From: a virus | Taxonomy: Duplodnaviria > Caudoviricetes | DNA length: 64,000 nt | Virus record (IMG/VR): IMGVR_UViG_3300042569_000831 | Location: 2,008-66,007 of that record | Reading direction: 5' to 3' (one strand) | Shown: positions 14,201 through 29,746 of the stretch, piece by piece | Layout of the letters: each line of letters begins with the position of its first letter | Position numbering within the stretch: position 1 is the stretch's first letter | Notes under the pieces: model-generated | Told to the model about the DNA's origin: nothing | Database searches by the model: none | What the model saw: only the letters and a program-made list of their open reading frames with translations | Position numbers and translations under genes: made by a program

Positions 14201-17176
14201 AAAGCAATAGAAGGCCTTTTAGGTAAGCCTAAGAAAGTTCAGCAAAGAAAGTCTGCTGTTGAAAAAACAAAAGAATTTAAGTTAGCTGCGTTTGTAATTA
14301 GAAAGAAATCAGAAGGCGCCTCTGTATTAGAATTAGCTACGGGTATAGCTTCTGTTATGCCGGGCATGTCGCCTGTTGAAATCAACAACTTGATTAACGA
14401 TCCTCAGCAGTACATAAGAGACAAGTTTAGCTACCTAAGCTCTCTTCTTCAAGAAAACTTAATAGCTAGAGCCGGAGGTCAAAACATTTACGCAAACATA
14501 CCTACTAAAAAAAGTGGAGCATTTTCTGCACTATCAGTAGACATATCTAGCATTGAAAACTACTTGTCTTCTAAAAAGAAAGGAAGAATTGATAAAGCGG
14601 TAAAATTCTTAGGCGATGTAAAAACTCAATGGTTTAGTGCTGCTAAAGGAGCTCCTAATTGGGTGCTTGCTTTGAGGGATATTTCTTCCGGAACTAGAAA
14701 CTTAGAAATAGATGTAGCTGTTAATACTACTAAGAAATTAAAGAAGACGGCTAATAGTATTAAATTTAATGATTGGGATGCGTTTACTAAGGCAATCAAA
14801 TCACTATCAGTTAACGCTACTCCTCAGCAGAACAGCTTGCAGGTAGTTCCGCCTGAAATACTAGCATTGCCTCAGGAAATACAGCCGTTTGTGTACGAGA
14901 TGAGAGATCAGATAGATGGACTTACCAAGGACCTTGTTGCGTCAGGGTACGTTACGCCCGATCAGGCCGTTGCGCTTGAATCAAATATTGGTCAGTACGT
15001 AAACAGAGCGTATAGATTGTTTAATGAAAAAGGATATAAGCCATCTAAGGAAGACATAGCTAATGCAATGAAATATTATTCCGATATTTATATTGACGAG
15101 TTAGCAAATAAGAATGCGGGAGTATTAACCTACGATCAGGTAAAGCAGAAAGCTATAGAGATGGCCGACATGGAAGTAAAGGATATTTTAAACAAAAAAG
15201 TAACTCCTTACTTTAAGTCAGGCGATTCTAGGAATGTTGATATACTTAAAAAGAAGGAAGATATTCCGGAGCCAATTAGAAAGTTAATGGGTGAGTACAC
15301 CGATCCGGGAACTGTATTTGTGATGACTGTTGCTAAGCAAGCTGCTTTAAGGTCTGCTAGTCAATTATTAACCGGCCTTAGAGATAGAGGCATGGGGTCT
15401 GTATTCTTTGAGGAGAATGACCCTGAAAGGCCCGATACTCATAGCGAACGAATAGTAGCAGAAGGTACTGAAACTAAGAATCCATTAGGAGGACTTTACA
15501 CGACTCCTGAGATGGCCGCTCAGTTACAGGGTATAGCTAAAACTACAAACCAAGTTTTAGATGTATGGATGAAATTAGTTGGTACTGTTAGATGGGGAAA
15601 GACTGTTGGATCCGTGGTTACTCAGGTTAAAAACTTTGAAAGTAACGTTGGATTTGCGGTAATGAATGGATTAATATTTACCGGTAAGTCGGGGCAGGGA
15701 TTAAAAGGAGCTGCTAGTTATTATGGCGGAAGAATAAGTGGAAGAGAGTTGGATGAATTAACAGCTAAGGTGGTTAGCTTAGGACTTGTTGGCCAAGGCG
15801 TTAACGCAATGGAGCTTAAAAAAATGCTCGGTTCGGGGGACGTACATGACATAGCTGTAGATTTAGCAGTAAATGGAAGATCTAATTACGCTAAAGCAAG
15901 AAACTTTGTATCAGCGCCAATAAGAGCAGCTAATAAGTTTTATCAATTAAGTGATGACTTTTGGAAAGTTTACGCTTACATGAACGAAAGGCACTTAATA
16001 GCTAAGGCGATGTTCGGAAAATCATACGACAAACTAACAGAAGATCAGCAAGTTGATGTGGACATAGAATCGTCCGAAAGAGTTAAGAGCACATGGCCAA
16101 CCTACGACCGTGTATGGGAGGGTGCTAAATACTTGTCAGAAAGAGTTCCACTAATAGGTAACTTTATTTCCTTCCAAGCTGAATCAGTGAGAGTGTTATC
16201 AAATACTGTTAAAATAGCCTTAAAGGATATTAAATCAGGCGACCCGGGCTTTCAAGCGTTAGGGTACAGAAGGCTCTTTGGAATAGCTTCTTACCTATCA
16301 ATAAGAGCAGGATTAACTTACGCTGCCGCTACCTCAGCAGGTATGGCTGTTGCAGGATTGTTAGGAATTATTACAGGGGATGATGAAGAAAAGGAAAAGC
16401 TAAAGGGGATTAAGGACGCCTTACCTCAGTTCATGAAGACCGGGGACTTGTTAGTAATCAAAGGCGATAAGCCGGGAGTATTCACTGTTTACAATATGTC
16501 TTCCATAGACCCTTACAACGTAATGTTTAATACAATGAATGCACTGACAGAGGGCAGGGAAGGAATGGATGCAGGTCCGGCTGCTGCGGTTACTGAGTTC
16601 TTTAATGGATTCATGGAGCCCGAAATGACTTACGAGACTGTATCAAGCTTATTAAGTAATAGAAGCTTAAAAACAGGCGATAAGATTTACTTAGATGCAG
16701 ACAATCCGGGTGACAAGATTCTTAAAGGAGCCAAGTACGTATGGGATAATTTAGAGCCATCGTCAGTTTCATTGGTGAATAGATTAATGGAGAAGGAAAA
16801 TAAGGGAGCAGAAGTTTCCGCTGTATTCGGAGCAAGACCTTACGATGTAGACTTGAACAGGTCGTTTAGAATATTATTATCCACTACTACTCAGGATTTA
16901 GAAACTATAAATAAGCAGTACGGAGCGATAAAGAAAAGCGAAACAGCTACAGCCGAAGAGAAGAAAGCGGCAGAGAAGGAGGCAGAAGAAAAGATTGCCT
17001 ATTACTCAGAAAGAATAGGCAATACTTATAAAAGATTCTTATTATTAGGTGCTAGCAAGGAAGAGCTAGACAATATAGTTAAAGAGAAGAGAGCTGTTAA
17101 ATCAACCGGATGGAGTAAGCAATTAAAGAAATCCATCATATCAGGCAAGATTAACAAGGACGACTTTTTAAAGTAG
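8207..17176 (+). CDS. giant polyvalent cargo protein (two HExxH metallopeptidase-like and ADP-ribosyltransferase-like modules)
   Basis: 2989 aa; HEGAH and HEIGH motifs, 'FYHYSGK' and 'VTVYSS...FVSPSK...EYAG' ART-like segments, hydrophobic helices in the C-terminal region. Confidence 0.7.
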   Translation: MPDKIKDFFKAEIAPTGLFKSEDEFRTYISDPKNASSFYESEVKPVGLFKDAEEFNSFLGLKKNDGLVSPTQNQQEVLPSNLAPTQSSVQNPRIEPSQEEDLSLLSVDELSKRYNKSKETINAYKEQVDKFKQEGEKGQVRLSGVANLYNYENNNLKNIADAYNQKIQQKAPKTPEPAPQAPTLLAKVREYQKIANAPVTKDYELNSMGDLDEVDNPASLKSKENAKVEYDKLIKEYATTTGISEDDLKQTLNDFPKISEDQKLVDYTKQRLENPAAYKRQKAASSWSNGLNDALVDYNQKAIAENKKPPIGNPVRFANQKREDLKVILKGANPYSQFINFTENLRKEISYLPNEVVNGIMKNVAIEGQGILEGAPDKDQYISSDPKSKNLNKYQVSWLNSIKISDPDLYKNRTRLLSVPMSKLEEQSSAKNEFSSLSPTSAIGASKAASAARNQRLASERVQLEAEEGGISMAKEDKTEKLDDLIRKSKTTGITQQEKEVADQLIVDLNQLDKDSKALNEKYPLATKDRDDQLLFSATGGELNRAERFAAKTVKGFDNALGFISDIISTPFMSKEQRVIQDLDELGGKRRFETKTARKQDDIVVGNYTINATPEFLKYIEEVDNDKSLTFEQKQQKKRDKYREDPYLITIKRNDNAGDLLFTSETVLNAVEDFGSQILPQLGLSAITGGGAAISKLRSLSTLFGTTFASGYKDNYLSAVEEGDAAPSTTAFRNTSIDALYELIGDDLAMVKKVFGKASGSIGKLVNSIDEAEWNKILSKKTGAFRAVKNVAKSFGKDVLLEGAKEATGEAAAAGTTSYLDNKEAYEPMKTAFVNTFVGSVATMGLGTVFNYKNITRAEKYAMYAAGANSSAYLADIDESLKNGTITEDEANKRRQVIQSMSNIVNEMPKVDGMSDNEVVDFAFNKYIQEQAGKAEKVIPDNAKVKELVQNLNNENNNIINAATESTQQAGSTESNIGQPTGTLQGQQEVGEGQQGEATQQGANVSDSNIVSEGELTPEQKKERIKSKFDFVSENDFVPEAFTKEEDAQYRDSLAPSRFKTEKELTDFLENNEYAMLTGQNPDVVSLSKGANAQLNDKAKQWLADRGLTAEPIFGRYDGSERSFLVPNMTKEQALEFSNDFLQQSVAHSEGLVYKDGTIRKRVEGYSLEPRFDADGNNYSTLKIGDKKVDFSINYDWVSPVSKMEAPKPLPAKNQKSTEIATELSRELTGPSDMIESVSQSLKATGINTVQLSGEEFAARAAKDGAQADSMGYFDDQAKEFVLNKDKADKATVIHEGAHPVMNIIYNTNRPLYDKVVSGMKQAAAKNAGVQSAIEFGGQYEMQEGETKEQAQARMDNEALVETLAKIEDGEIDLDELPKSFKQSLIDMVNSVAKFFGFDQVLDDTDVAAFKKLVGQVYDALTTGEDISSIVGVENVTKFENKIGEGVQERSSFVNTDKLNLSTDKRGNVKIELKKVQPTSELMSEYNNARNEAFKISDRAEEQYDKGNDKEGDALMIEYKKARKDAERLIKGTTASTSSSIELQDVLPKEFIDKYPSLSDIKIKSSDVSFGNRGNYNKETNTINVITKGENFEHTLSHEIGHLLWDKILTDNQKKLFSDNNPVTEHGKKVLDNKETNYQESYGGKNIHNEEDFAELFADNNGSLDDAIKAKKNQSATSKKVQERKTELPEKQARQMTEDGKGNYVFYHYSGKNINTIDPNKFGSNLATGRDEKPGVGISMYYTKKDTSEPGVPSNFGYVVRVPKDKVYSFNDDPLNLLPAAEKLFKKQYPNQAFDPNKQIGFLTKVANSKGYKMTVANWNIKGSFALRAQTTEALKPEKYTRIKPGTLNQTEVLSPELDKLKPNSKKRVQQRVDTLSDVERKQKQLEIINKENPAPNDYNTWIRKVEDIKTAEEAFKSSEKEGAMYPDFTEKDMKDALSSGEVTVYSSQPIKEGVFVSPSKINAQEYAGGKTGKLYSEKVKLEDVAWIDEGEGQFASTKAIEGLLGKPKKVQQRKSAVEKTKEFKLAAFVIRKKSEGASVLELATGIASVMPGMSPVEINNLINDPQQYIRDKFSYLSSLLQENLIARAGGQNIYANIPTKKSGAFSALSVDISSIENYLSSKKKGRIDKAVKFLGDVKTQWFSAAKGAPNWVLALRDISSGTRNLEIDVAVNTTKKLKKTANSIKFNDWDAFTKAIKSLSVNATPQQNSLQVVPPEILALPQEIQPFVYEMRDQIDGLTKDLVASGYVTPDQAVALESNIGQYVNRAYRLFNEKGYKPSKEDIANAMKYYSDIYIDELANKNAGVLTYDQVKQKAIEMADMEVKDILNKKVTPYFKSGDSRNVDILKKKEDIPEPIRKLMGEYTDPGTVFVMTVAKQAALRSASQLLTGLRDRGMGSVFFEENDPERPDTHSERIVAEGTETKNPLGGLYTTPEMAAQLQGIAKTTNQVLDVWMKLVGTVRWGKTVGSVVTQVKNFESNVGFAVMNGLIFTGKSGQGLKGAASYYGGRISGRELDELTAKVVSLGLVGQGVNAMELKKMLGSGDVHDIAVDLAVNGRSNYAKARNFVSAPIRAANKFYQLSDDFWKVYAYMNERHLIAKAMFGKSYDKLTEDQQVDVDIESSERVKSTWPTYDRVWEGAKYLSERVPLIGNFISFQAESVRVLSNTVKIALKDIKSGDPGFQALGYRRLFGIASYLSIRAGLTYAAATSAGMAVAGLLGIITGDDEEKEKLKGIKDALPQFMKTGDLLVIKGDKPGVFTVYNMSSIDPYNVMFNTMNALTEGREGMDAGPAAAVTEFFNGFMEPEMTYETVSSLLSNRSLKTGDKIYLDADNPGDKILKGAKYVWDNLEPSSVSLVNRLMEKENKGAEVSAVFGARPYDVDLNRSFRILLSTTTQDLETINKQYGAIKKSETATAEEKKAAEKEAEEKIAYYSERIGNTYKRFLLLGASKEELDNIVKEKRAVKSTGWSKQLKKSIISGKINKDDFLK
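11088..11255 (+). CDS. overprinted small basic phage protein (MPLQKAH...MLAIAISSAKGN)
   Basis: 55-aa ORF in the +1 frame of the giant gene, with an A-rich leader; resembles the widespread 'MPLKK..IS.NI.E..GK..QA.AIAL' phage family. Confidence 0.65.
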   Translation: MPLQKAHNKQGLQKAISANLRELYKDNKKLEKGNKGKPRSKAQMLAIAISSAKGN

Positions 17177-17488
17177 ACTCTTAGCGTAACGCTCTATCTC
17201 TAGTCTACCCTCTACGGTAAGGTTGCTCATTATCCGGGCAACCTCATCGTAGATTAATGTATCATCAAACTCTTTGTCCCTTACATCGGTTAGCGATCTC
17301 GGCACCCTTAAGTCAAGGGCGGTTTTGATATAGTCTATTTTCTTCCCTAATGGCCTGATAACATCGTTCTTTGCTCCAACGTGGAAGTCTCGGTCTGCTA
17401 TTAGACTATCACAATACATCTTAGCATTCTTGATGCTTTTGTACATTAAGCACATTGTTTCGCTCTGCGTGTTCGTTAGTTTTATCAT
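17168..17488 (-). CDS. hypothetical protein
   Basis: ORF converging on, and overlapping, the stop of the giant gene. Confidence 0.6.
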   Translation of the reverse strand: MIKLTNTQSETMCLMYKSIKNAKMYCDSLIADRDFHVGAKNDVIRPLGKKIDYIKTALDLRVPRSLTDVRDKEFDDTLIYDEVARIMSNLTVEGRLEIERYAKSLL

Positions 17489-17606
17489 TAATTTCGTTTT
17501 CTAATTTTACTAATATTTGCCCTATTACTATCCCTATCTTAAGGGTATCACCTTCTTCAATAGCCCTAGATAGCGATACGTGTATGTTCTTAAGTAGGTC
17601 AATCAT
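17421..17606 (-). CDS. hypothetical protein
   Basis: Coupled ORF in the - strand operon. Confidence 0.5.
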   Translation of the reverse strand: MIDLLKNIHVSLSRAIEEGDTLKIGIVIGQILVKLENEINDKTNEHAERNNVLNVQKHQEC

Positions 17607-17830
17607 AACTTGTCGTTTAATAATTTTAATACATCATTTTTTTCAATCCACTCCCTAATCAATAGGGAGTCCTCGTGTACGTACGAGTCTTCATCCCAAG
17701 TAAATTGCACTATAGCGTTGCGCTTGATTTTTTCTGTACCAAACTCGTGAGTAAAACTCTCGTCCACCTCTTCTACCTCACCGTAGAATGTGACGTACAG
17801 GTCTTCTGTTATTTCAACTTCAATTTCCAT
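17603..17830 (-). CDS. acidic hypothetical protein
   Basis: ATG ORF, coupled to the next gene. Confidence 0.55.
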   Translation of the reverse strand: MEIEVEITEDLYVTFYGEVEEVDESFTHEFGTEKIKRNAIVQFTWDEDSYVHEDSLLIREWIEKNDVLKLLNDKL

Positions 17831-17987
17831 ATTGCTATTGTTTGAATATAATTATTATTATTTGAAGCCTTTAATTGTACTGTAAGATATTTTATTGGTA
17901 AACAGTGTGTAGTTCTTGTATTATTATTAATAAGGTTCTTCCATACCTCAATAAAATGTGTTGGATTATTCATGGGTAAATGTTTGG

Positions 17988-18239
17988 TTATAATATTTCA
18001 ATTTCAGATTTTAAAAACTCTTGTTTAGATAATTCCATTCCCGAATTAAATTTAGTATTAAAAGAAATTTCCGCTAACTTTTCAGATGGTATTAGTTGTT
18101 GTTTAATTAAATCATAAACATTTAATATTGCTTTACTATCTGAAGATTTTAAAATACCATCTAATCCTTTAACAACATTTATTTGAGTTTCTATCCATTC
18201 ATTACTAATAAGTGAATAGTCTTGTAGTTTAATTTTCAT
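17988..18239 (-). CDS. hypothetical protein
   Basis: ATG ORF in an AT-rich accessory region. Confidence 0.55.
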   Translation of the reverse strand: MKIKLQDYSLISNEWIETQINVVKGLDGILKSSDSKAILNVYDLIKQQLIPSEKLAEISFNTKFNSGMELSKQEFLKSEIEIL

Positions 18240-18242
18240 ATA

Positions 18243-19142
18243 TTATTTCTTTTTAAATTTATTACACCATTCAATAAATAATTCTTCATTAGTTCTTTCT
18301 TTACCTGAAATTTGATTAACCTCTAAGTAGACCCATATTGCAAAATCAATCATATCTTTTTTAGTAAACATTCTTCCTTCCATCCATTTAGCGCCTTCAA
18401 TAAACTCATTTCTTAATTCAGAGTCTTTTTCAGACATACTTCTTGGATATTTTTCAAAGGCAAGTTCTTCTATTGTTTCTTTAGGTATAAACTGTCTATA
18501 ACAAGTTATTTCATTACAACCCTTCATTTGTTCTCTTAGTGTTTTATCGCAAAAATTACAAATCTCTTGTTCAGATTTTTCGATTAGGACTTTAACAAAA
18601 CACCCACAATCATGTCCCGGACTATCCAAAAAACAACCGTTTCCATTATTGCCATTACATTCGCCGATGTATTTTTGTTTAGATTCTTCTTGTGGGATGA
18701 TGATTTTATAAGGTTTGATAAATCTCATTTTTGGATACGGTACAGTATCATCCTGTTCTTTTTCCAATGTTGCAACCTCACAACTACTGTTCTTTACAAA
18801 CCACTCTGCAAATGTATTATCAATAGCTTGTACTCCGCTAACTATTAAATCTTCGTCTGTTGTCAGGATGACTTTTTTACAATATTCTGCACCAATGGCC
18901 ATGCCACCACTATTAGTGACATAGTATATAGTTTTTGAATTTTTTGTATGGCATCTATGTAAATAACCCCCTGTAGTGATGAACCATTCTCCTTCTTTAA
19001 TTTCTAAATCAGCAGTAATATAGATGTGTTGGTTAATTGTATGACCACCTGAATTTTGCAAGATGCTATCTAAGTGTAATTTACCGTTATTAGAGTATAA
19101 CCTACTTGGTTTATCTGTAGGGATTAAGTGAATATTTTTCAT
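18243..19142 (-). CDS. mosaic hypothetical protein with Cys-rich inserts
   Basis: 299-aa ORF 'MKNIHLIPTDKPSRL...KKVILTTD'. Confidence 0.65.
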   Translation of the reverse strand: MKNIHLIPTDKPSRLYSNNGKLHLDSILQNSGGHTINQHIYITADLEIKEGEWFITTGGYLHRCHTKNSKTIYYVTNSGGMAIGAEYCKKVILTTDEDLIVSGVQAIDNTFAEWFVKNSSCEVATLEKEQDDTVPYPKMRFIKPYKIIIPQEESKQKYIGECNGNNGNGCFLDSPGHDCGCFVKVLIEKSEQEICNFCDKTLREQMKGCNEITCYRQFIPKETIEELAFEKYPRSMSEKDSELRNEFIEGAKWMEGRMFTKKDMIDFAIWVYLEVNQISGKERTNEELFIEWCNKFKKK

Positions 19143-19277
19143 CTGTGAATTTTTTTGAATTTATAATGAGTGTATATACTAGATCCGCAGGCCTGAGTCT
19201 CGGATGGTGTTCTACAGGACTGTAAATATACAAGTAGAATAATTGCAATCAAAATCTTTTTCATGTTTTTTTTGTTT

Positions 19278-19325
19278 CGCAGTATTGTAATACCCCGCAA
19301 TGCGGGGATATGTGAGTTATAAGAA
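19278..19325 (+). other. attI-like site 1
   Basis: CGCAGTATTGTAATACCCCGCAATGCGGGGATATGTGA-GTTATAAG; palindromic, lacks an attC body; homologous copy at 32611. Confidence 0.5.
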
Positions 19326-19335
19326 ATAGCTACGT

Positions 19336-19542
19336 TTAGTAGTTTTCAAGATAATCTCTAACTTCTTCCCAATAATCTTTTCCTAAAAACATACCAAAAG
19401 GATTAATTGATTTTATAATCTCATCAACTGCTATTAATGCACATAATACTGCATCCTCATCAGTTATTTTTATATTTCTTTTGTTAAATAAATCATCCTT
19501 TATTTTATTTACAATTTGCTTAGCTTTTTCTTTTGCATCCAT
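19336..19542 (-). CDS. cassette 1 hypothetical protein
   Basis: 'AKEKAK...CALIAVDEII...YWEEV' small phage protein lying within cassette ends. Confidence 0.65.
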   Translation of the reverse strand: MDAKEKAKQIVNKIKDDLFNKRNIKITDEDAVLCALIAVDEIIKSINPFGMFLGKDYWEEVRDYLENY

Positions 19543-19570
19543 AATTACTATTTGTGTTTATATCCGCTAC

Positions 19571-19699
19571 TTCTTATAACAGCAATTTGTATAAAAGGCT
19601 TGTTTAGTGTATGTCGGATAGTTTTGTTGATATTCTTTTTTATTTGTTGTGTTTTAGCTTAATTCACGCCACTTATACAAGTTGCAAAACGTTATAAGC
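19571..19699 (+). repeat. attC-like site 1
   Basis: TTATAAC-AGCAATTTGTATAA...TTATACAAGTTGC-AAAAC-GTTATAA. Confidence 0.8.
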
Positions 19700-19704
19700 A
19701 AGTG

Positions 19705-20523
19705 CTACATTTCGTTTCCAAATAAAGTTCCTACCCATAAGTCTTTTTCTTTTCTTTTTTCTTCCACTTCTTTTTTTGATTTCCCACTGTTAGTAGTTAA
19801 TAACTCCATAAACATATCATAATTTTCATTATGATTATTTTCGCCATATTTTATTTTAACCACTAAATCGTGCTTAATTTGGTCTATCTTAGGGTAAGGT
19901 AGGGTTTCAACAATCAAATCCGAAATACATTTTTTGTCAAAAAAATAGAAATATCTATACTGTCCTCCAAAAACTTTGTATAATGGTGTTCCATAAATAC
20001 CTTCTAATACACGTCTTTCTATTGTTTTATGTTTATGCCACAAAGAAACACTGTGCAATCTTTCACCATCTTTTGTGTACCAAACTCCGCCATCTTTTCT
20101 AAATCCAGTATAAATAAAATTACTTGCTTGGTATATAGTGCCGTTTTTGTTCATCATACCGTCTGCAAATGAAATAACCCATTTAAGTTTAGGGTTTAAT
20201 TTTTTTACCATTTTTAATGACTTTGCGATAACATAGCTTTCAGAATTAAACCCTAATTTATCATCAAGCCACAACCTGTTTAGTTCTAAAAATTCATCTT
20301 GTTTAGTGTTTTTTACCCACTGTGCTGTTTTTTTAGGCATTATCCCAAACCCATATTGAGCAACTCCTAATAAATCACTGCTGTAAAAAATGCCTATATG
20401 GTACTTAACACCTTTTACGGATGTACCGCTATAATGATTTTTTTCAATAATTGAGTTAGCTACTTTTGGTTCTATTAGCTCTAAATGTATGTTCTTAAAA
20501 TCTATATTTTGTTTCTTTTGCAT
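19705..20523 (-). CDS. Mom-like (GNAT-fold) DNA adenine-modification protein
   Basis: 'HYSG', 'LELNRLW', 'ISFAD...GTIYQASNFIYTG' Mom-family motifs. Confidence 0.75.
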   Translation of the reverse strand: MQKKQNIDFKNIHLELIEPKVANSIIEKNHYSGTSVKGVKYHIGIFYSSDLLGVAQYGFGIMPKKTAQWVKNTKQDEFLELNRLWLDDKLGFNSESYVIAKSLKMVKKLNPKLKWVISFADGMMNKNGTIYQASNFIYTGFRKDGGVWYTKDGERLHSVSLWHKHKTIERRVLEGIYGTPLYKVFGGQYRYFYFFDKKCISDLIVETLPYPKIDQIKHDLVVKIKYGENNHNENYDMFMELLTTNSGKSKKEVEEKRKEKDLWVGTLFGNEM

Positions 20524-20617
20524 ATTTCAATTTTTTGTTTTATTTTCCCACCGCACAAAAAAGAAAAGAAAAAGGTTTTGTCTTTCAAATCAAGTTCTAC
20601 ACTATAATACCGCACCA

Positions 20618-20753
20618 GCTTATAACAGCGTGTATATGCAAGTGGCGGTTCTGTGGTTTATCCAACATTCGTTATTCTATCAAACTATCTGCGTAATTGA
20701 AAGGTAAGTGCTTCTAATCGCCACCTGACATATACACGCAAAACGTTAGGTGC
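20618..20753 (+). repeat. attC-like site 2
   Basis: TAAC-AGCGTGTATATGCAAGTGGCG...CGCCACCTGACATATACACGC-AAAAC-GTTA, with extra bases on the right arm. Confidence 0.85.
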
Positions 20754-20757
20754 AATG

Positions 20758-20973
20758 CTAATTTCTACTCCTAACAAAACCTGCTATTATTAGAAATCCT
20801 ATTACCATATTAGTTGTTGGTTTAAGGATTCTACTATTCTCACTATAACATATCAAATTCCCAATTATTAATCCTATTAATAACAAGATTGGGAAGATAT
20901 GTTTCCGCACTGCACCTAACACCGGTTTTGTGCCATTGGCGGTTTCGTTCTTCGATTTAACTTTTGTACTCAT
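20758..20973 (-). CDS. cassette 3 small two-TM membrane protein
   Basis: Two hydrophobic helices; start codon lies inside the attC-3 loop. Confidence 0.55.
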   Translation of the reverse strand: MSTKVKSKNETANGTKPVLGAVRKHIFPILLLIGLIIGNLICYSENSRILKPTTNMVIGFLIIAGFVRSRN

Positions 20974-21048
20974 ATCAAGTTTTGTTTTTCAATTTAAAAT
21001 TTGTGGTTTAAGTCGCCAACGGACACAAAGCCCCGAAACGTTATGCTC
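20912..21048 (+). repeat. attC-like site 3
   Basis: GCACCTAAC-ACCGGTTTTGTGCCATTGGCG...CGCCAACGGACACAAAGCCCCGAAAC-GTTA. Confidence 0.8.
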
Positions 21049-21104
21049 CATTGCTACATTCGTGCTTCGATTGAAGTTTTGTGCTAACATACCGTATTTA
21101 TTTT

Positions 21105-21983
21105 TTATTTTCCTCGCTCTTTTGGATAAGGATAAATTTTATTTCTTTCTTCATATATTTTACGAAGTTGTTTTGTTTCTTTTTTATCTTTCCCTAAAAC
21201 ATAAGCGTATTTGTGTTTTGAAGGCATAGATATTTTTTCGCATACCGTTTGTTTGTATTTTGAATAATCTCTTAGTTGCTTCTCAATTTCTTTCGGCATT
21301 TTATCCCAATTCATGCCAGTAGCGTGTGACCAATCTTTTTGCCACTCAATATTTAATTCCTTTGCAAATTTTCGATAGGCTGTTTTTTGTCTAAAATATC
21401 TATCACTTACCACCTTTCCTGTATATGGGTTAATAAATCGGGTTGTAGTCCCAGCAGTTTGCCCCATATAGTAGAAATTACAAGCCTGATAGATAGTTCC
21501 AAGTTCCTTTGCTGTTGGGTCTGAATATGCAGTAAATAACCTCCATTGAGTATTATCAACCATATGTTTTATACACCACATTAAAAATGAACTTGCTAAA
21601 TTTTTTGGCGACCAAGATATACAAGCACCTCTACTAATCAATCTCTCCAATTCTTTGGTGTTATCTCCAAGTGTTTTTGAAAAAGCATTTGGCATATTAA
21701 ATAAAATTACACCAGCAATAATGCCTTTATGATAACAAGCAAACCAATGTGTTGTATATTGAGATAAATTCCCCAACCATTCGTGTCTTTCAATAAATTG
21801 TTTTAGCCTTTGTTGTTCCTTTTTATCTGTAACATTAACAAACAAAAAATCAGGAACTCTTAACGTATCAACATATTCTTTTGTAAAACCACATTCCGTT
21901 AAATCTCCTTCAAGGTTTTTCACTCTAATATCATACTGCCAACATTGGTCTTTATCGTATGTGTTCAATCTTTCTTGTATCAT
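21105..21983 (-). CDS. second Mom-like (GNAT-fold) DNA-modification protein
   Basis: 'RLISRGAC...AYSDP...GTIYQACNFYYMG' motifs. Confidence 0.7.
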   Translation of the reverse strand: MIQERLNTYDKDQCWQYDIRVKNLEGDLTECGFTKEYVDTLRVPDFLFVNVTDKKEQQRLKQFIERHEWLGNLSQYTTHWFACYHKGIIAGVILFNMPNAFSKTLGDNTKELERLISRGACISWSPKNLASSFLMWCIKHMVDNTQWRLFTAYSDPTAKELGTIYQACNFYYMGQTAGTTTRFINPYTGKVVSDRYFRQKTAYRKFAKELNIEWQKDWSHATGMNWDKMPKEIEKQLRDYSKYKQTVCEKISMPSKHKYAYVLGKDKKETKQLRKIYEERNKIYPYPKERGK

Positions 21984-22077
21984 TTTAATTTTTTAAATTA
22001 ATTTTTGCCAACGCTCATAAAAAATAAATACTACTTATGTGCTTCGATTTAAATTCCTCGTTAATAAACCGCAACGA

Positions 22078-22176
22078 GAGCATAACACGTGCTATAAGCA
22101 AGTTTGCCAATAATATTTGTGCTAATTTGAAACATTCTACAAGGCAAACCTGCTCATAGCACCATACGTTAGTTGC
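22078..22176 (+). repeat. attC-like site 4
   Basis: GAGCATAAC-ACGTGCTATAAGCAAGTTTGCC...GGCAAACCTGCTCATAGCACCATAC-GTTA. Confidence 0.85.
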
Positions 22177-22411
22177 AATTTTTCTTACACCACATTATCT
22201 TGCTACCTCTCCGCAAATGAACTAATCGTAATTCATAACCTTTATTCATCATTTGTTGCATTTCTTCTAATTCTTTAAGTTCTACATCATTGAAAGAGCG
22301 TTCATTTGCTCCATCTTTAATCTTAATGTAATTCTTAGCAAAATCATAAAAACTGCAACTAACATCGTGTATAGCACATTGCTTTTCGTGTTTCAAATTA
22401 TCTTTATTCAT
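22169..22411 (-). CDS. cassette 5 hypothetical protein
   Basis: Starts inside attC-5; its TAA stop overlaps the GTTA of attC-4. Confidence 0.55.
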   Translation of the reverse strand: MNKDNLKHEKQCAIHDVSCSFYDFAKNYIKIKDGANERSFNDVELKELEEMQQMMNKGYELRLVHLRRGSKIMWCKKNCN

Positions 22412-22484
22412 ATTATTAAGTTTTGTGTTTGCATTTGTTTTTTTTAATTAAGTTCCTACTGATAAGCCGCCAAACGTTAATACC
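22355..22484 (+). repeat. degenerate/chimeric attC-like site 5
   Basis: GCAACTAAC left end and AAAC-GTTA right end, but the arms pair poorly; GTTA coincides with the thyX stop codon. Confidence 0.55.
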
Positions 22485-23121
22485 CGAACGCCTTTAACGT
22501 CCACTTAAAGGGATTTCCCTCTATGTTTTTCACAGCTTCTAGCATTTGACTTGCCACCTCCCTAGTCTCTTGCTGCGCATCCGGTTTTAACCTAAGGTTC
22601 CATAAATGAATAAATGCTAGCAAACTTCCCGTCCAAATAAATGTAGTATTAAGATTTAAAGGAAGAATTGTCCTTGCTTGTTCTTTAGATACGCCTAATT
22701 TTAACAACTCTTCGTATGCTTTTTTGCACTGATCAATTACACATCTTTCAATATAAGCGGCTGACAATTGTGATTGTATTAGTCCATCACTCCCCTGCTT
22801 GCTATCTTTAGATTGCTTTCTCCATTCCTTAATAGTAGTGTAACTATCACTAAAGTCTACATACCTACCACTTATACTATTGGCGGATAGTCCAATTTGA
22901 TGTTTAAAAAGCTGTCTTTCTACATAAATAGGACAAGTTATTCTAAACTGTAACTGAGGGTGTCTAAAAGGCGCTGTGTGTTTATGTTCAACTAAATATT
23001 CTATAAGTCTTTCATCCTTTTCATCTAGCATGTCTTTTGACTTGCCGAATGACACACGAGCCGAATTTACCGCCATTAAATCATCTCCAAAATGCGAAAG
23101 CAATTCTACTTTATTTTCCAT
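22477..23121 (-). CDS. thyX: flavin-dependent thymidylate synthase
   Basis: 'HTAPF', 'RQLFKHQIGLSANSISGRY', 'EQARTILP', 'LRL...AQQE' ThyX motifs. Confidence 0.95.
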   Translation of the reverse strand: MENKVELLSHFGDDLMAVNSARVSFGKSKDMLDEKDERLIEYLVEHKHTAPFRHPQLQFRITCPIYVERQLFKHQIGLSANSISGRYVDFSDSYTTIKEWRKQSKDSKQGSDGLIQSQLSAAYIERCVIDQCKKAYEELLKLGVSKEQARTILPLNLNTTFIWTGSLLAFIHLWNLRLKPDAQQETREVASQMLEAVKNIEGNPFKWTLKAFGY

Positions 23122-23338
23122 TCTCTAATAATTGTATTTTTCTGTTAAGATAAAATGATGCCTTCTTTAAATCTTCAATCTCCGTTTCTACGCTTTTCTT
23201 CCCGGCTCTAGCTATGTACTTCGCTACATTAAATAAATAGGCGTCCATGTGCAAGCCCCATGCTTCGCACACATTAATTACTTCATACGTTCCTTCACCC
23301 CCATAATGGGATGGGTGATCTACTAAATTATTTGGCAT
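23111..23338 (-). CDS. DUF3310-family protein
   Basis: 'VDHPSHY...NVAKYIARAGKK...EDLKKA.FYL'. Confidence 0.85.
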   Translation of the reverse strand: MPNNLVDHPSHYGGEGTYEVINVCEAWGLHMDAYLFNVAKYIARAGKKSVETEIEDLKKASFYLNRKIQLLENGK

Positions 23339-23389
23339 TATTTATTGTTTTAGTTATTGTTTTTTTCTCTAAATTCAATCCTAGAATCG

Positions 23390-23584
23390 TTAATATGCAA
23401 TAATATTATTAACAATTCGGTTAGCTTCCGAATAGCTTAGTTTAATATTACTGTCCTTAGCTCGTTGGATAGTAATATTATTACCATCGTCAACAGCTTT
23501 CATTACTATTTTGCCCCTGTACTCTTTATTCCAATGTTTAGAATATTTTACACAATTATTATCTATGTCGTACTCATTAGACAT
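23390..23584 (-). CDS. hypothetical protein
   Basis: ORF in operon. Confidence 0.45.
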   Translation of the reverse strand: MSNEYDIDNNCVKYSKHWNKEYRGKIVMKAVDDGNNITIQRAKDSNIKLSYSEANRIVNNIIAY

Positions 23585-23613
23585 TAAATTAGGCTATGCT
23601 TCTATGTGAACCC

Positions 23614-23862
23614 TTACCATATTTTTAGTATTTTATCTCCTTTAGTTAATATTCTTATTTCAAAGTGGTTGTCATAAAAGGATACAATATCGCTAACTAA
23701 ATTGTTTATATTACTAAAATTAATCATTAAGTACTGATTGATTGAGTGTATAAACCCATTGAAATCTAAGACACGCTTTGGATTAGTATCCAAGTACACA
23801 TCGTACATGAATTGATAAGTCATATTTGACCTATTAGCTAGATAGTATTCCTTTGTTATCAT
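23614..23862 (-). CDS. hypothetical protein
   Basis: ORF in operon. Confidence 0.55.
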   Translation of the reverse strand: MITKEYYLANRSNMTYQFMYDVYLDTNPKRVLDFNGFIHSINQYLMINFSNINNLVSDIVSFYDNHFEIRILTKGDKILKIW

Positions 23863-23863
23863 T

Positions 23864-24397
23864 TTAAAAGTTTTTAAACATCATTGATTCGACCGGTAGG
23901 CTTGATTGATGATTGTACTTTGCTGATTTTTTTGTATCATAAGGATTAATTACATTTCCCTTTATAGCATGATATACTAATTGGCCTATTGGCATGTTTG
24001 CATATATTCTAACAGGCTTTACGGCGGTAATTTCTAGCGTCCAATACCCTTTAAAATTTACGTCACCTAGCCCTGCTGTTATATGGATAGAAATACCTAA
24101 CCTGCCGGTGCTTGACTTGCCTTCTAATATTGGAACATGGCGGTAAGTTTCTGTGTACTCGATAGTAGAACCTAGATAAAGCACGTTTGGCTGTAATACA
24201 AATCCTTCTTTCGGTATGTTAAAACAATTAATCTTATTGTGCTTCTTAGCGTCTAATACTTCTGAGTCGTAAACAGCTAGTGTCTTGCCCAAGTGAACAT
24301 CGTAACTATTGCTACCTAAATGTTCTATGTTAAATGGGAATATCGCAATATTACCATCTTCCATTTGATTTAATATTTCACTGTCTGATAGTATCAT
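23864..24397 (-). CDS. dcd: dCTP deaminase
   Basis: 'MILSD.EI', 'SYDVHL', 'EGKSSTGRLG', 'GYWTLEI', 'PIGQL' trimeric dUTPase-fold Dcd motifs. Confidence 0.9.
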   Translation of the reverse strand: MILSDSEILNQMEDGNIAIFPFNIEHLGSNSYDVHLGKTLAVYDSEVLDAKKHNKINCFNIPKEGFVLQPNVLYLGSTIEYTETYRHVPILEGKSSTGRLGISIHITAGLGDVNFKGYWTLEITAVKPVRIYANMPIGQLVYHAIKGNVINPYDTKKSAKYNHQSSLPVESMMFKNF

Positions 24398-24407
24398 AAA
24401 TTTAGTT

Positions 24408-24436
24408 TAAAAGCCCCCGAACTCTCAGGGGCTTTA
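24408..24436 (-). terminator. intrinsic terminator-like hairpin
   Basis: AAAGCCCC...GGGGCTTT stem with flanking A/T runs. Confidence 0.6.
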
Positions 24437-24441
24437 TTGAT

Positions 24442-24681
24442 TTAAAATGGTAATCCGTCATTGCTCTGCTTGTCTTCTGCTTTTTTTTCAGTAGGAACCC
24501 AAGTATTTAACTCTAGGTACGGTCTACCATCCTTAGAACTTTTAAGTACAAAGTTTTTCCAACCATCGAACTTAACGCCAATCTTTTCCCAATCCTGAGG
24601 ACCAAAAGAGATGGCTGTTTCAACTTGTCCAAACTTGTTTTCCTTTTGGGATACTTTCCCAACATAGATTTTTTCGCTCAT
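24442..24681 (-). CDS. small SSB-like protein
   Basis: Acidic C-terminal tail ending DGLPF. Confidence 0.55.
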   Translation of the reverse strand: MSEKIYVGKVSQKENKFGQVETAISFGPQDWEKIGVKFDGWKNFVLKSSKDGRPYLELNTWVPTEKKAEDKQSNDGLPF

Positions 24682-24829
24682 GTTTATTAAAATTTAAAAG
24701 TTAATTCAAACGCAAAATTTAAGAACCCTACCGCTAACGCAACTTCCTTTCGATAACTATCATAAATCAGTGCAACTGCCGGAAATAATAAATAGATAAA
24801 CTCTTCCTTTTCTACATTAAAAGTTGTTT

Positions 24830-25165
24830 TCATATAATTTTATTTAATTTAAGCATGTCAATTAATTCTTTGAAACTATCTAAGCTCATTGCTACGATGG
24901 TTCCTTGTCTTGTTTTTTTGTGGAACACTAGATTGTAATTAGAGTCTTTAGGCATACTGTCTAGTACTTTATGAATACTACCAAGATTCTCTACCGCCTT
25001 TAATTGGCAGTTAAATGGATTGGTATTGGTTAAGTCTACCTTAAGATCGTCTAGCATCTTTGATTCGTACCGAGAGGTTTTACAATTCTCGAACCCCCGA
25101 TCTCGCCACCATTTAGCTATCTCCCTTTCGTATGTATGCCCTTTGGCTCTAGCGTTAATCTTCAT
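24830..25165 (-). CDS. Holliday junction resolvase (PD-(D/E)XK, Hjc-like)
   Basis: 'RAKGHTYERE...VDL...CQLK'. Confidence 0.75.
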   Translation of the reverse strand: MKINARAKGHTYEREIAKWWRDRGFENCKTSRYESKMLDDLKVDLTNTNPFNCQLKAVENLGSIHKVLDSMPKDSNYNLVFHKKTRQGTIVAMSLDSFKELIDMLKLNKII

Positions 25166-25358
25166 AGTGTATTTTTGTTTGTGTGTACATTGGCGGTAAA
25201 GTGTAAAACCTATTGGATTTTTTTACTACACCTTCCTCTACCATGTTATTTAATTCGATTGATACGTCCGCAAAACTAGAAGAGAGTAGACTGAATATCC
25301 CTACTATGCTTACTGACGGGTGGTTTGCTATCGCTCTTTTTATCTGTTCTCTTAACAT
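25155..25358 (-). CDS. small hypothetical protein
   Basis: Coupled ORF. Confidence 0.45.
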   Translation of the reverse strand: MLREQIKRAIANHPSVSIVGIFSLLSSSFADVSIELNNMVEEGVVKKSNRFYTLPPMYTQTKIHYED

Positions 25359-25582
25359 AAATTCTTTTTGCTGTTAAAAAATCTTCTATTGTTGACCATT
25401 CAACTTCGTTATGGAAAGTGCTAAGATAGAAAATATTTTTATTAATTGGGTCAACTAAATAAAATTTATTTTCATTTGGCACAACTTCTTCCGGCTCAGC
25501 TAGCCTTAACATATCAATCCCCTTTTCTAATATCACCCACTCCCTGATTTTACCTCCGTTATTAGCGCTCTTCCATGAATCT

Positions 25583-27304
25583 TTATAGATTACCTGCTGC
25601 AAGGAATCGTGTATAATCGGTTGGTTGGTTTTTAAATTTCGTTTTATCGAGGACATTTAAGTTACTTGTTGGTGTGTAAATAGAATTTGATATGTTAAAA
25701 ACAAAGCTGTCGGTGCCTAGCTGACCTGAGAATTTAAACCTTACTTTCCAAAAGTGAATCTCGGTTGTGTTCTCACGCCTGTAAACTGTGATGCCATTAT
25801 CGGGGGCGTTGTAATAGTGGGAAGAGTCGCCAACATCATAGCCGGTAGGGATTTCGTAAACGCCATTTGCCTTGCTCATTTTTTTAGGGTGAGCCACTAG
25901 CCAAACGTGTACATCGTGCTTTCTTGCAAACTTCCTTAGGTCTCTCATCATATCACCTATGGCGTTATGCCTTTTATCCCCCGAACTGACAATTCCACGC
26001 TCAACAGAAGACATGTTGTCTATAACGATACCCCTTATTCCGGTGCGCTTAATCATCTCTTCGGCCTTGGCCATGATGGACTCTATTGTGCTATCATTCT
26101 CGTCAAGTTCGTAATACTTAAAGTGGTCGTTGATAAATAAAGTCTCCATTTCTACCTCCGACTTTGTGATTCTCTGACAGTTCGGGGAAAAGAAAAAACT
26201 CTTACCGGTCTTAATAGAAATCAAATCAGTAATAGCCATCTTTGCGCTTGCCTCCTCAGCAGAGTACAACATAAACGACCATCCATGACGGTTAGCTAAA
26301 TTCATCAAGACATTCTTTAGCCAAGTAGTTTTACCATGACCCGGTATCCCGGTAATCAAAGTAACCATTCCGGGGTGCCAAACGAAGTGGTCGTCCATAT
26401 TTGCCCATCCGGTATCGTACCCCTTAGGATAACCCTCTTCCCACAGTAAGGCCATATCAGCCCCATTAACGACCTCAATACCGTCAATAGGGAAATACTC
26501 GGCATTTAAAATACAAGCCTCTAATGCCTCCTTTCCGTGCGATTTCAGCGTATCGTTAGCGTCCTTTTCAGGGAAGACAACTACCTTACAGTTTTGTTTA
26601 CCTAGTCTTCTAGCTAACTCATCCCTAAGGTTTCTGCCGGCCTCATCCATATCAACTGCCAAGTAAATAGTTTTGCCTTCCAAATACGGGAGCATTTCTT
26701 CCAACCACTCTAGCTTCTGATTACCCTTAGATGCGCCATTTGGAACGCTTACCGCATTCTTAATACCCGCTTCGTAAAACGCCATAACATCACACTCGCC
26801 TTCACAAATAACCAATGAGTCAGAACTGTTATCCAATGCAACATCAAGTCCATACAAGCACAACTGAGCGCCGCTAACAAGCTTAAAGTTCTTGTCACGA
26901 TCCCTAAATTTAACATTGACTAATTCGTTATTGATGAAGTAATTAAAGTGTATGGCGTTTCTATTCTCTCCGGCTTGTGGCATGAATACAGATCCTTCTG
27001 ATACTTGGTATCTAAGAAGAGTTTGATTAGTTATCCCCCGAGCTGCGAACCAATCTATTACAGGCTGAGAAAGCCTTTTAAGTTCAGTTGTGTTAGGGCG
27101 AGTGTATTCCTTTTTAGAAAAGTTACTTACCCCTCCTTTGAAGTCGCAATGATGGCACCTATAAAGACCCTTCTCTACGTTAACCGATAAAGATAAATCG
27201 CTTTTGTTTTTTCGATCAGGGCTGCACTTCGGGCATTTAACCTTAACGTCTCCTCTTGATCCTAGTTTAACATCTATCCCTAGATTACGTAGTTTATTGA
27301 TCAT
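25583..27304 (-). CDS. T7 gp4/Twinkle-like primase-helicase
   Basis: Zn finger (CPKC...CHHC), TOPRIM (CEGECD, DMDEAG, KDAND), Walker A GIPGHGKT, 'LVAHP'. Confidence 0.95.
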   Translation of the reverse strand: MINKLRNLGIDVKLGSRGDVKVKCPKCSPDRKNKSDLSLSVNVEKGLYRCHHCDFKGGVSNFSKKEYTRPNTTELKRLSQPVIDWFAARGITNQTLLRYQVSEGSVFMPQAGENRNAIHFNYFINNELVNVKFRDRDKNFKLVSGAQLCLYGLDVALDNSSDSLVICEGECDVMAFYEAGIKNAVSVPNGASKGNQKLEWLEEMLPYLEGKTIYLAVDMDEAGRNLRDELARRLGKQNCKVVVFPEKDANDTLKSHGKEALEACILNAEYFPIDGIEVVNGADMALLWEEGYPKGYDTGWANMDDHFVWHPGMVTLITGIPGHGKTTWLKNVLMNLANRHGWSFMLYSAEEASAKMAITDLISIKTGKSFFFSPNCQRITKSEVEMETLFINDHFKYYELDENDSTIESIMAKAEEMIKRTGIRGIVIDNMSSVERGIVSSGDKRHNAIGDMMRDLRKFARKHDVHVWLVAHPKKMSKANGVYEIPTGYDVGDSSHYYNAPDNGITVYRRENTTEIHFWKVRFKFSGQLGTDSFVFNISNSIYTPTSNLNVLDKTKFKNQPTDYTRFLAAGNL

Positions 27305-27445
27305 TTGTATAGTTTTTTGTATAGCAACCTTAACTCTTCATTCTTTGCAGCTATATCTTTTTTCAGATACTTTGCTTGCCGGTGTAGCTCATTGAAATTG
27401 TCAATCATTTTGACTAACTTATCTTCCAACTGCTCTACTTTTAAT

Positions 27446-27871
27446 TTAATGTTGTCCGCCATTTTGTTTTGATTTTAATATCCAATACTCATTGGCGTCC
27501 TCCCAATAAGTCATAAATTTATTTTTACTTCCGAACAAAGTAGCCGGCCTAAGGTATTGCCTCATCTCCGGATCGTTACCCCACTTTTCTTTTTTATGAA
27601 GAATAACGCTTTCAAAGTGAGCAAATGTAACCTTAGGAATTTGTCTTATTACTGCCTTTATTTTTTCAGTATTAGAATAATTTGTTTCGCAAGTTTCATT
27701 AAAAAAATCTAGTACTTTCTTAGCTAAGCCCTTGTCATCAAACGATTCAATTTCTTTTTTCATTTGAATCCAATGCATATCGTCATCGGCATTAAATATT
27801 ATTAATAAATTGATAGCGGCAAGAGCATCGGCCTTTGTACTGAATAGGTTAATTATCTTCTGAGTATTCAT
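27446..27871 (-). CDS. replication initiator-type protein (conserved phage C-terminal domain)
   Basis: 'W...EMRQYLRPATLFG.KF..Y' motif. Confidence 0.75.
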   Translation of the reverse strand: MNTQKIINLFSTKADALAAINLLIIFNADDDMHWIQMKKEIESFDDKGLAKKVLDFFNETCETNYSNTEKIKAVIRQIPKVTFAHFESVILHKKEKWGNDPEMRQYLRPATLFGSKNKFMTYWEDANEYWILKSKQNGGQH

Positions 27872-28055
27872 TCATTACGCTTTTAATTGTATCAATACTC
27901 CATCCCGCTAGAACCAATAAGTTAGCTATTGCCTCTATTGCATCAGGAAGGCTTGTCTCATCAATCACGTCCTTGTTCATAAATGGAAGGCCATTTGCCC
28001 CCCATTCATTCTCATAGGTGTATTTATTCTTGTAATGCTCGATAGTTATTTTCAT
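27849..28055 (-). CDS. hypothetical protein
   Basis: Coupled ORF. Confidence 0.5.
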   Translation of the reverse strand: MKITIEHYKNKYTYENEWGANGLPFMNKDVIDETSLPDAIEAIANLLVLAGWSIDTIKSVMNEYSEDN

Positions 28056-28730: not shown

Positions 28731-28732
28731 GT

Positions 28733-29734: not shown

Positions 29735-29746
29735 ATTTTTTAAATT

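Follow-up and report, generated by a model that had tools for sequence, protein, structure and literature searches.

Positions 19316-22479 of the stretch of DNA analysed here, a 64-kb piece (hereafter the window) of a 66-kb IMG/VR virus record, probably represent five integron-type gene cassettes in a phage, which are moved by site-specific recombination with an enzyme that the host would supply. Each cassette consists of one gene and one attC-like site, and cassettes are gained, lost and replaced by a site-specific crossover inside AACGTTA, which corresponds to the G|TT point of classical attC sites. The catalyst is probably a host Xer/IntI-like tyrosine recombinase acting on phage DNA during infection, presumably with the folded minus strand as its substrate, and the genes, which are antisense to the sites and co-directional with the minus-strand block in which they lie, would be transcribed from the surrounding operon. 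We demonstrate here the family of sites and the unit of exchange, and the host enzyme is the likely best candidate for the catalyst, as judged from its co-occurrence with the sites. The source is a lake-water phage of Flavobacterium-type bacteria, and the recognisable cargo is counter-defence, being represented by two Mom-like genes in the window and mostly by DNA methyltransferases in related arrays. The array and the core gene adjoining it are listed with their open reading frames (ORFs) in Table 1.

Matched cassette ends and the hairpin family

The initial annotation had proposed that the left end of each unit is the reverse complement of the start of the unit's own downstream hairpin, and all five pairs proved to be exact. 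They are GTTATAAGAA (19316) and TTCTTATAAC (19571), GTTATAAGC (19691) and GCTTATAAC (20618), GTTAGGTGC (20745) and GCACCTAAC (20912), GTTATGCTC (21040) and GAGCATAAC (22078), and GTTAGTTGC (22168) and GCAACTAAC (22355). The matched ends measured 10 nt in cassette 1, 9 nt (12/14) in cassette 2, 10 nt (13/14) in cassette 3 and 9 nt in cassette 4, and a repeat search lengthened two of the pairs, to 15 nt at 93% and, for the inverted pair of cassette 5, to 16 nt at 94%. The ends are matched cassette by cassette, as had been claimed, but they do not differ wholly between cassettes, because the stretch of about 14 nt includes a conserved A opposite C at position 11. When the whole 64 kb was searched for 9-nt GTTA/TAAC inverted pairs spaced 150-1300 nt apart, eight were found, five in the array and three elsewhere, and block shuffles gave a mean of 2.9 with a maximum of 10. 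A single pair of this kind is not rare, whereas five pairs tiled in 3.2 kb beside hairpins are rare, with about 0.14 expected.

The same matching was observed well beyond the window. Among 78 cassette instances, the complementarity between a cassette's own ends averaged 9.1 nt (12.3/14), compared with only 4.7 nt between the two ends of one array hairpin, and a run of at least 8 nt between cassette ends was present in 205 of 279 unique viral cassettes, all five window cassettes being matched. This is the pattern expected if the gene-plus-hairpin unit was once a circle closed at GTT: after a crossover within AACGTTA, a cassette opens with the reverse complement of the sequence that precedes its own YAAC.

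Table 1. Features of the cassette array in the window and the core gene next to it.
Feature	Position	Strand	Content
Left boundary	19278-19319	+	small GC stem (CCCCGCAATGCGGGG), then first GTTA (19316-19319)
Cassette 1	19317-19691 (375 nt)	+	68-aa ORF, 19336-19542, minus; attC-like site A, 19571-19694
Cassette 2	19692-20745 (1054 nt)	+	Mom-like gene, 19705-20523, minus (272 aa); site B, 20618-20748
Cassette 3	20746-21040 (295 nt)	+	71-aa ORF, 20758-20973, minus; site C, 20912-21043
Cassette 4	21041-22168 (1128 nt)	+	divergent second Mom-like gene, 21105-21983, minus (292 aa); site D, 22078-22171
Cassette 5	22169-22476 (308 nt)	+	80-aa ORF, 22169-22411, minus; degenerate site E, 22355-22479
thyX	22477-23121	minus	PF02511 at 3.3e-44; core gene adjoining the array; stop codon formed by the TTA of the final GTTA

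In plus-strand orientation, a site opens with YAAC and its left arm; a loop that varies and measures tens of bases leads to the right arm, after which come a bulge of 4-5 nt and GTTR. The bulge, which adjoins GTTA, corresponds to the extra bases that had been noticed on the right arm. We aligned 36 distinct hairpins from the window and Flavobacterium phages (alignment A1) and built from them a covariance model, R1. The alignment has a 23-pair structure made up of the invariant TAAC/GTTA pairs and a 19-pair stem. In this structure, 83% of the cells were paired, compared with 32-37% when the partner column was slid; 180 cells were changed on both sides, compared with 57 in shuffles; none of 500 shuffles reached the observed covariation; and 17 of the 23 pairs included a change on both sides. 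The covariance model, which had been proposed as a check, has a stem that covaries, and it also finds a site outside its training set: site E (22354-22485) scored 28.9 bits (E=0.0026), and the training members A, B, C and D scored 97, 98, 100 and 54.5 bits, respectively. Nothing else in the window fell below E=0.1, and the window sites read on the opposite strand reached 11-12 bits. A second, simple detector agreed with R1 on the strand of 146 of 150 sites. The expectation of imperfect TAAC...GTTA hairpins between all five units was borne out in part: sites A-D are strong and belong to one family, but site E is degenerate, and the leftmost GTTA has no family hairpin. The left boundary at 19278-19319 gave no R1 match, with no family hairpin upstream of the GTTA at 19316-19319, which may be an attI-like or secondary recombination point.

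Folding of the bottom strand, also suggested by the initial annotation, was examined in DNA folds, and sites A-D gave the hairpin. The minus strand was more stable at all four sites, with values for the minus and plus strands of -14.4 and -11.6, -23.2 and -21.6, -23.0 and -15.4, and -18.5 and -14.8 kcal/mol. In integrons, the bottom strand of attC is the substrate of recombination, and by analogy the folded minus strand is the likely substrate here. Non-Watson-Crick positions are kept in the stem, namely a T·G in 27 of the 36 sites (columns 16/134 of alignment A1) and an A·C in 35 of the 36 (columns 26/124), and the third is in the cassette-end stem, where an A stands opposite C at position 11. 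All three are common to host and viral sites and may mark polarity for the recombinase. Outside them, the conserved core of the sites is GTTR/YAAC only.

Several simpler ways of locating sites were tried and rejected. The pattern TAACN{60,90}AACGTTA was too narrow (2 matches, with 2.1 expected), and AAACGTTA alone gave 9 matches, with 4.5 expected, of which the five outside the array are coding sequence without a hairpin. A hairpin detector that relied on duplex energy accepted far too much (134 and 106 matches in the window) and was dropped, and the matches of the second detector at 32768-32970 and 59472-59605 were judged false, lacking support from the covariance model. A weak R1 match at 28232-28341 (16.7 bits, E=0.64) lies at the junction of two minus-strand ORFs and ends in AAACGTTA; it could be a decayed solitary site or a chance match.

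Exchange and cargo of the cassettes

Hairpins that are 81-90% identical to site A occur in 46 GenBank records, each a Flavobacterium phage of the vB_FspS series, and the left genome arms of these phages hold arrays of 7-15 such hairpins with DNA methyltransferases and small ORFs between them. In ten isolate-phage loci, the simple detector placed 101 sites on the plus strand and one on the minus strand. An IUPAC pattern from one common left arm was used to search IMG/VR and bacterial contigs, and it matched 82 IMG/VR stretches and 21 bacterial genome contigs, mostly of Flavobacterium. R1 found 320 sites (E<=0.001) in the 73 of the 82 viral stretches that were scanned (640 kb). The vB_FspS phages were described by Nilsson et al (2020), who reported that methyltransferase content varies between isolates; the text of that paper available to us does not mention hairpins, palindromes, cassettes or an integrase.

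The unit of exchange is seen most clearly in two of these isolates. The genomes of mumin6-1 and mumin6-3 differ by one 506-nt indel, to the left and right of which they are 99.9% identical. The indel is exactly one gene with the hairpin to its right, and the alignment pieces overlap by the 7 nt AACGTTA. The distance from TAAC to TAAC, counted from the filifjonk copy, is 495 nt and does not fit the mumin indel. Together with the matched ends in all five window cassettes, this junction bears out the R'/R'' signature with a crossover at G|TT that had been read from the window. Comparison of relatives for breakpoints at the GTT sites had been proposed as well, and the breakpoints fall at the GTTA end of the hairpin and not at the TAAC end. 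Within the arrays of seven isolate loci, 71 of 166 homology ends, which are not independent events, were located within 12 nt of a GTTA site, compared with 9 of 166 for the TAAC end and with about 6 (maximum 13) for random placement.

Cassettes of the window itself are deleted or replaced in contigs from lake metagenomes, at 19316-19319, 20748, 21040-21044 and 22171-22172. In one contig of run X4, position 19315 is linked to 21040, with GTTAT common to the two sides of the joint, so that cassettes 1-3 are gone, and in another contig of the same run (2799 nt) the match to the window starts exactly at 21040. A contig of run X6 (depth 8.5) contains 19243-19319, then 500 unrelated letters, then 21024-22171. 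The run X4 and X6 contigs depart from the window sequence at 19315-19319, and others do so just past 20748 (run X8), 21043 and 22171. Two joints in run X3 (21087 to 22351 and 22380 to 20731), with a depth of 2.7 and extra letters between the joined parts, were set aside, and only stretches with contig cover counted as evidence. The contig of a 99.3%-identical relative ends 1 nt past the site at 19316-19319 and differs at the last base. Furthermore, cassette 3 was found alone in another, unrelated viral contig, L083, in which positions 10617-10920 correspond to window positions 20742-21045 at 96% identity; the only other window homology to that locus is a 76.6% match at 22002-22182, which is not adjacent. 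Taken together, the mumin indel, the lake contigs and the presence of cassette 3 in L083 support the proposal that the phage acquires and shuffles accessory genes by attC-type recombination.

The location of the array could also be compared among loci that share its neighbouring genes. Among 80 viral loci that contain a relative of thyX (58-79% identity), 79 lacked any site of the family, the 1.04 Mb of these loci scanned with R1 containing three sites, all in one locus, and the array is thus regarded as an insertion particular to the phage lineage. The four loci in all that have the 299-aa gene flanking the array on its other side contain no family sites. Neither the 299-aa gene (4 loci) nor thyX (80 loci) led to an informative empty-site relative of the phage.

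Viral and host cassettes were found to differ in the orientation of their genes, a feature that the initial annotation had missed. We took cassettes with matched runs of at least 8 nt and compared the longest ORF of at least 40 aa with the site. In IMG/VR loci, the ORF was antisense in 150 cassettes and sense in 7, with no such ORF in 17; in the window and isolate phages, it was antisense in 28 and sense in none, with no such ORF in 3; and in Flavobacterium genome loci, it was antisense in 2 and sense in 39, with no such ORF in 3. Of the cassettes with an ORF, 178 of 185 viral ones thus carry it antisense to the site and 39 of 41 host ones carry it sense, which suggests two cassette pools on one site family.

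The cargo was characterised in the same material. The 147 viral ORFs of at least 60 aa include 22 N6/N4 DNA methylases, 3 other DNA methyltransferases, 3 Mom and 5 YopX proteins, the rest being mostly unknowns. The ORF of cassette 2 matches PF25680 (Mom) at 6.2e-58 as well as phrog_1384, and that of cassette 4 matches PF25680, a family annotated as anti-restriction, at 8.6e-15; the ORF of cassette 1 matches phrog_21441, of unknown function. The 39 host ORFs include Abi_alpha, TIR, SIR2, AAA_21, AAA_15, Imm33-like, SUFU, DMP19 and ParE, and anti-phage and immunity-type domains were observed among the host cargo of four loci (L105, L111, L112 and L123).

The Bacteroidota -7 promoter motif TAnnTTTG was counted in the hairpins. 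On the gene-sense strand of viral hairpins, it was not enriched (13/375). On the hairpin's own strand, it occurred in 61 of 375 viral and 13 of 73 host sites, with 13 and 1 on the opposite strand, and on that own strand it would point towards the gene of the next cassette in hosts and would be antisense to the genes in phages. No sign was seen of promoters for the phage genes in the hairpins.

Host arrays, the candidate recombinase and rival explanations

The same sites are present in bacterial chromosomes, where a recombinase accompanies them. Five Flavobacterium genomes contained 57, 27, 14, 37 and 20 R1 sites, F. columnare having 14, and the best match to TIGR02249 (integron integrase) in each of the five genomes was this recombinase, which is co-oriented with the array and adjoins it in at least three of the five. 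The host array recombinase is 347-356 aa long and scored 218 bits with NF040815 (XerA / integron integrase; cut-off 220), 205 bits with TIGR02249 (cut-off 265) and about 184 bits with XerC. Its TIGR02249 match is in two stretches and leaves model positions 177-237 unmatched, which we take to be the place of the IntI-specific insertion.

In an even sample of 201 Bacteroidota genomes, a homologue of the recombinase was found in 65 at E<=1e-60 and in about 19 at an identity of at least 59%. R1 sites were present in 18 of 19 genomes with a close homologue (215 sites) and in 7 of 20 without a homologue (17 sites). At least 10 further genomes have an array that begins no more than 2.5 kb downstream of the recombinase, shares its strand and runs for up to about 35 kb, so that arrays lie directly downstream of an Xer/IntI-like recombinase in at least 13 Bacteroidota genomes in all. 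The suggestion that a host Bacteroidota recombinase is the catalyst gains support from this arrangement. Cassette ends in the hosts are matched in the same way, down to the A opposite C at position 11, and the host sites end in GTTA or GTTG, the fourth base varying with the downstream cassette. Several short contigs of host arrays end inside hairpins, which suggests that the arrays break assemblies.

The phage, as far as it is sequenced, offers few candidates of its own. As the initial annotation stated, no IntI-type integrase is adjacent to the array, and none was found anywhere in the 66-kb record, the window included. The sole tyrosine recombinase of the window, at 33744-34949, is a generic phage integrase 11 kb from the array; it had no TIGR02249 match and only weak XerA/XerC matches, and it shares 24% identity with the host array enzyme over the catalytic domain. 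A search for PF00589 (tyrosine recombinase) at E<=1 found none in five complete Mumin-type phage genomes, and PF00239 (serine recombinase) was found in none of five records (four Mumin-type genomes and the record of the window). The absence of a tyrosine recombinase from the five complete Mumin-type phages makes the host enzyme the likely catalyst.

A number of observations weigh against an integron-type array served by a host enzyme. By the usual definition, the host array recombinase is not IntI, and the antisense cargo of the viral cassettes has no counterpart in classical integrons. Of the 378 viral and 73 host sites, 33 and 4, respectively, agree with the box GTTRRRY (about 9% and 5%), and 32 and 4 agree with RYYYAAC. 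Site E did not form the family hairpin in DNA folds (z of +0.8 and +1.0) and is hence degenerate. As to exchange, 49 of the 166 homology ends lie at least 200 nt from any detected site, so that either other recombination also shapes the arrays or the detector misses sites; the joint of the run X4 contig is thin (depth 2, with a shorter side of 26 letters); and the metagenome runs are assembled contigs, which cannot show circular cassettes, so that recombination is seen indirectly. Finally, CheckV estimates the completeness of the virus record at 58%, and a recombinase could therefore sit outside the sequenced part.

It is possible, although unlikely, that the sites are real and that the catalyst is an unrecognised phage enzyme, such as a nuclease or a recombinase outside the known families. 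In favour of this, virulent-type phages maintain the arrays without a known recombinase, the viral pool has a polarity of its own in its antisense cargo, which suggests handling apart from the host cassettes, and the crossover sequence AACGTT is itself palindromic. The window phage and the Mumin/Lillamy phages, however, share only four weak protein matches, none of which is a plausible recombinase, and the same site family, with its three conserved mismatches, stands beside a tyrosine recombinase in the host genomes described above. We consider it very improbable that the hairpins are shared intergenic modules between which genes are shuffled by ordinary homologous recombination, in the manner of the promoter-stem-loop (PeSL) modules discussed below. 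That explanation would agree with hairpins that are 80-96% identical across unrelated phages, with some homology ends that fall inside hairpins or far off, and with two hairpins of filifjonk9-1 that have a common left arm and different right arms; however, the two hairpins on either side of the mumin indel have just 7 nt in common at the junction, breakpoints cluster at the GTTA end and not at the TAAC end, homologous shuffling would not yield inverted ends specific to each cassette, and the gene-sense strand shows no excess of the -7 promoter motif.

Slightly less probable still is a role of the hairpins mainly as RNA elements, such as terminators, processing sites or translation controls, with the link to indels being secondary. 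The mRNA-sense (minus) strand folds more stably and several ORFs begin within a hairpin, as such a role might lead one to expect, but the elements would need to work in both orientations, given the opposite polarity of host and viral cassettes, and the matched cassette ends and the linkage to a recombinase would be left unexplained. Rfam, searched over 18500-23500 with E up to 10, gave only chance-level snoRNA and miRNA matches. A MITE (miniature inverted-repeat transposable element) or other transposon was rejected, since the hairpin flanks are not direct repeats, the moving unit is a gene with its hairpin, and the sites are strictly co-oriented.

Cassette exchange by a host enzyme leads to a broader view, to which we give about even credence: Bacteroidota and their phages would share one integron-like platform for gene capture that standard tools do not see, in which hosts bank sense-oriented defence and immunity cassettes, and phages without a recombinase keep a separate antisense pool of counter-defence genes, with many DNA methyltransferase and Mom-like genes, and borrow a host Xer-like enzyme, without the IntI insertion, for a distinct class of attC. 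If this is true, the two opponents in the arms race draw on one and the same recombination machinery for their diversification. Integrons are best known for the spread of antibiotic resistance in Proteobacteria. The 320 viral sites in 73 contigs, together with the sites in all five Flavobacterium genomes and in 18 of 19 Bacteroidota genomes, point to a large and partly described branch of integrons that has a simpler recombinase and reaches into virulent-type phages. Should the host enzyme act on infecting phage DNA, counter-defence repertoires could change within one infection cycle, which would matter for the escape of phages from restriction and for the evolution of host range in aquatic Flavobacteriia. 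There may also be implications for phage cocktails designed against flavobacterial fish pathogens such as F. columnare. The system is, in addition, a natural experiment on the need for the IntI-specific insertion, which Smyshlyaev et al (2021) found to be not fully conserved in an 'integron-like' subgroup of recombinases.

Comparison with known systems and the surroundings of the array

The array in the window is a CALIN-type member of an integron variant and not a classical integron. As far as the definitions are given in the parts of Cury et al (2016) and Neron et al (2022) available to us, an integron has IntI, attI and attC, and a CALIN is an attC cluster lacking integrase; the window has, within 3.2 kb, five sites of the same orientation, and no integron integrase is close by. 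Classical integrons likewise have cassettes of a single gene, sites that form imperfect hairpins with AAC...GTT as the core, a crossover confined to the GTT end, a cassette start complementary to its own R'', co-oriented arrays and better folding of one strand. The host arrays are headed by a tyrosine recombinase of the same orientation, which may be compared with the layout called 'inverted integrase' in the accessible text of Cury et al (2016). In contrast to classical integrons, the recombinase scores below the IntI cut-off and has no match at IntI model positions 177-237, only GTTR/YAAC is kept instead of full 7-nt boxes, the sites have three conserved non-Watson-Crick positions, and the viral cargo is antisense. 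Unlike a complete integron, the window has no adjacent intI, its cassettes are not sense-oriented from a cassette promoter (Pc), and neither a Pc nor an attI is definable in it. Sedentary integrons have uniform sites and mobile ones varied sites. The host sites are likewise more uniform than the phage sites, arm identity being 0.61-0.67 in three of four host arrays and 0.44-0.55 in phage arrays, which resembles this contrast. For Bacteroidetes, the available part of Neron et al (2022) reports only In0 elements and one Salinibacter integron, so that standard integron tools apparently miss the host arrays.

The idea of a phage-side cassette system was correct in that a cassette array is present in a phage, but such a system is not wholly new. 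According to the text of Qi et al (2023; PMC9892861; Qi, Ghaly, Tetu and Gillings, Front Microbiol) that we could consult, 17 CALINs occur in 10,705 phage genomes, some with only two sites; the CALIN of the flavobacterial Polaribacter phage P12002L holds DNA methyltransferases, and one of its attC sites recombines with attI1 under IntI1. Those arrays resemble the present one as attC clusters without an integrase in virulent phages. The main text of that paper does not contain the word Flavobacterium and, in the part available, draws no link to a host system of Bacteroidota or to cargo polarity. By eye, P12002L has TAAC..GTTA hairpins, matched ends and antisense genes like those described here, but R1 found nothing in it at E<=0.01, and its shorter sites are therefore another subtype. 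At 29150-32290 and 37190-39260 of P12002L, TAAC..GTTA hairpins of about 60-70 nt with matched ends were observed between methyltransferase and Mom-like genes, apparently more than the two sites given in the available text of Qi et al (2023).

The host arrays have a partial precedent of their own. In Bacteroidales, rAID-1 is described in the accessible part of Ross et al (2019; 10.1101/471110) as a 5' XerD-like recombinase followed by co-directional genes with integron-like intergenic repeats, the cargo including immunity proteins. The Flavobacterium arrays share its recombinase-first layout, in a comparison that covers layout and cargo and not identity to the rAID-1 recombinase (the 44% criterion), and they carry Imm33-like, SUFU and DMP19 beside Abi, TIR and SIR2 genes. 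The phage array, by contrast, has no XerD-like recombinase, and in the same part of the paper rAID-1 is known from gut Bacteroidales chromosomes and mobile elements, not from phages, and is described without a hairpin structure, a crossover point or cassette boundaries. A description of the present system as a whole was not found, the phage CALINs of Qi et al (2023) and rAID-1 of Ross et al (2019), as far as these sources are accessible, being partial precedents. A literature search that did not extend to supplementary tables (Qi 2023 S1, Nilsson 2020 S13) returned no paper on such arrays in Flavobacterium phages or chromosomes.

Another resemblance is to the PeSL modules of T4-type phages, which Arbiol et al in 2010 reportedly described as shuffling genes by homologous recombination. 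In both cases, small accessory genes in the plastic parts of a phage genome stand next to repeated intergenic stem-loops, for which a role in gene shuffling is proposed. The exchange proposed for PeSL is homologous, whereas here it involves a 7-nt core at one end of the site and a linked site-specific recombinase of the host.

In the window, which has a GC content of 37.5%, the array is located inside a minus-strand gene block at 17168-35612, between a 299-aa gene of unknown function and thyX. All five of its ORFs are antisense to the sites. The thyX stop codon is within the last GTTA (22476-22479), so that the array abuts a core gene exactly, as had been stated. Directly upstream of this block, positions 8207-17176 are taken up by one ORF of 2989 aa on the plus strand.

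Some of the ORFs extend into the sites themselves. The stop codon of the cassette 5 ORF is inside the GTTA at 22168, and the first codons of the cassette 3 ORF are in the left arm and loop of site C. ORFs that start inside a hairpin, with first codons from the left arm, were observed at 20912-20973 and 22355-22411 of the window and at 3087-3135 and 6563-6611 of filifjonk9-1. In filifjonk9-1, two different genes have the same hairpin-encoded N-terminus, with homology starting near TAAC, and the first 22 residues of the 71-aa ORF of the window recur in hairpins of other contigs. In cassette 4, fragments resembling the hairpin loop lie on either side of the Mom-like gene as direct repeats (21044-21110 and 22002-22071), and weak partial R1 matches were found at 21050-21111 and 21941-22016; the loop-like fragments may be relics of fused or decayed cassettes.

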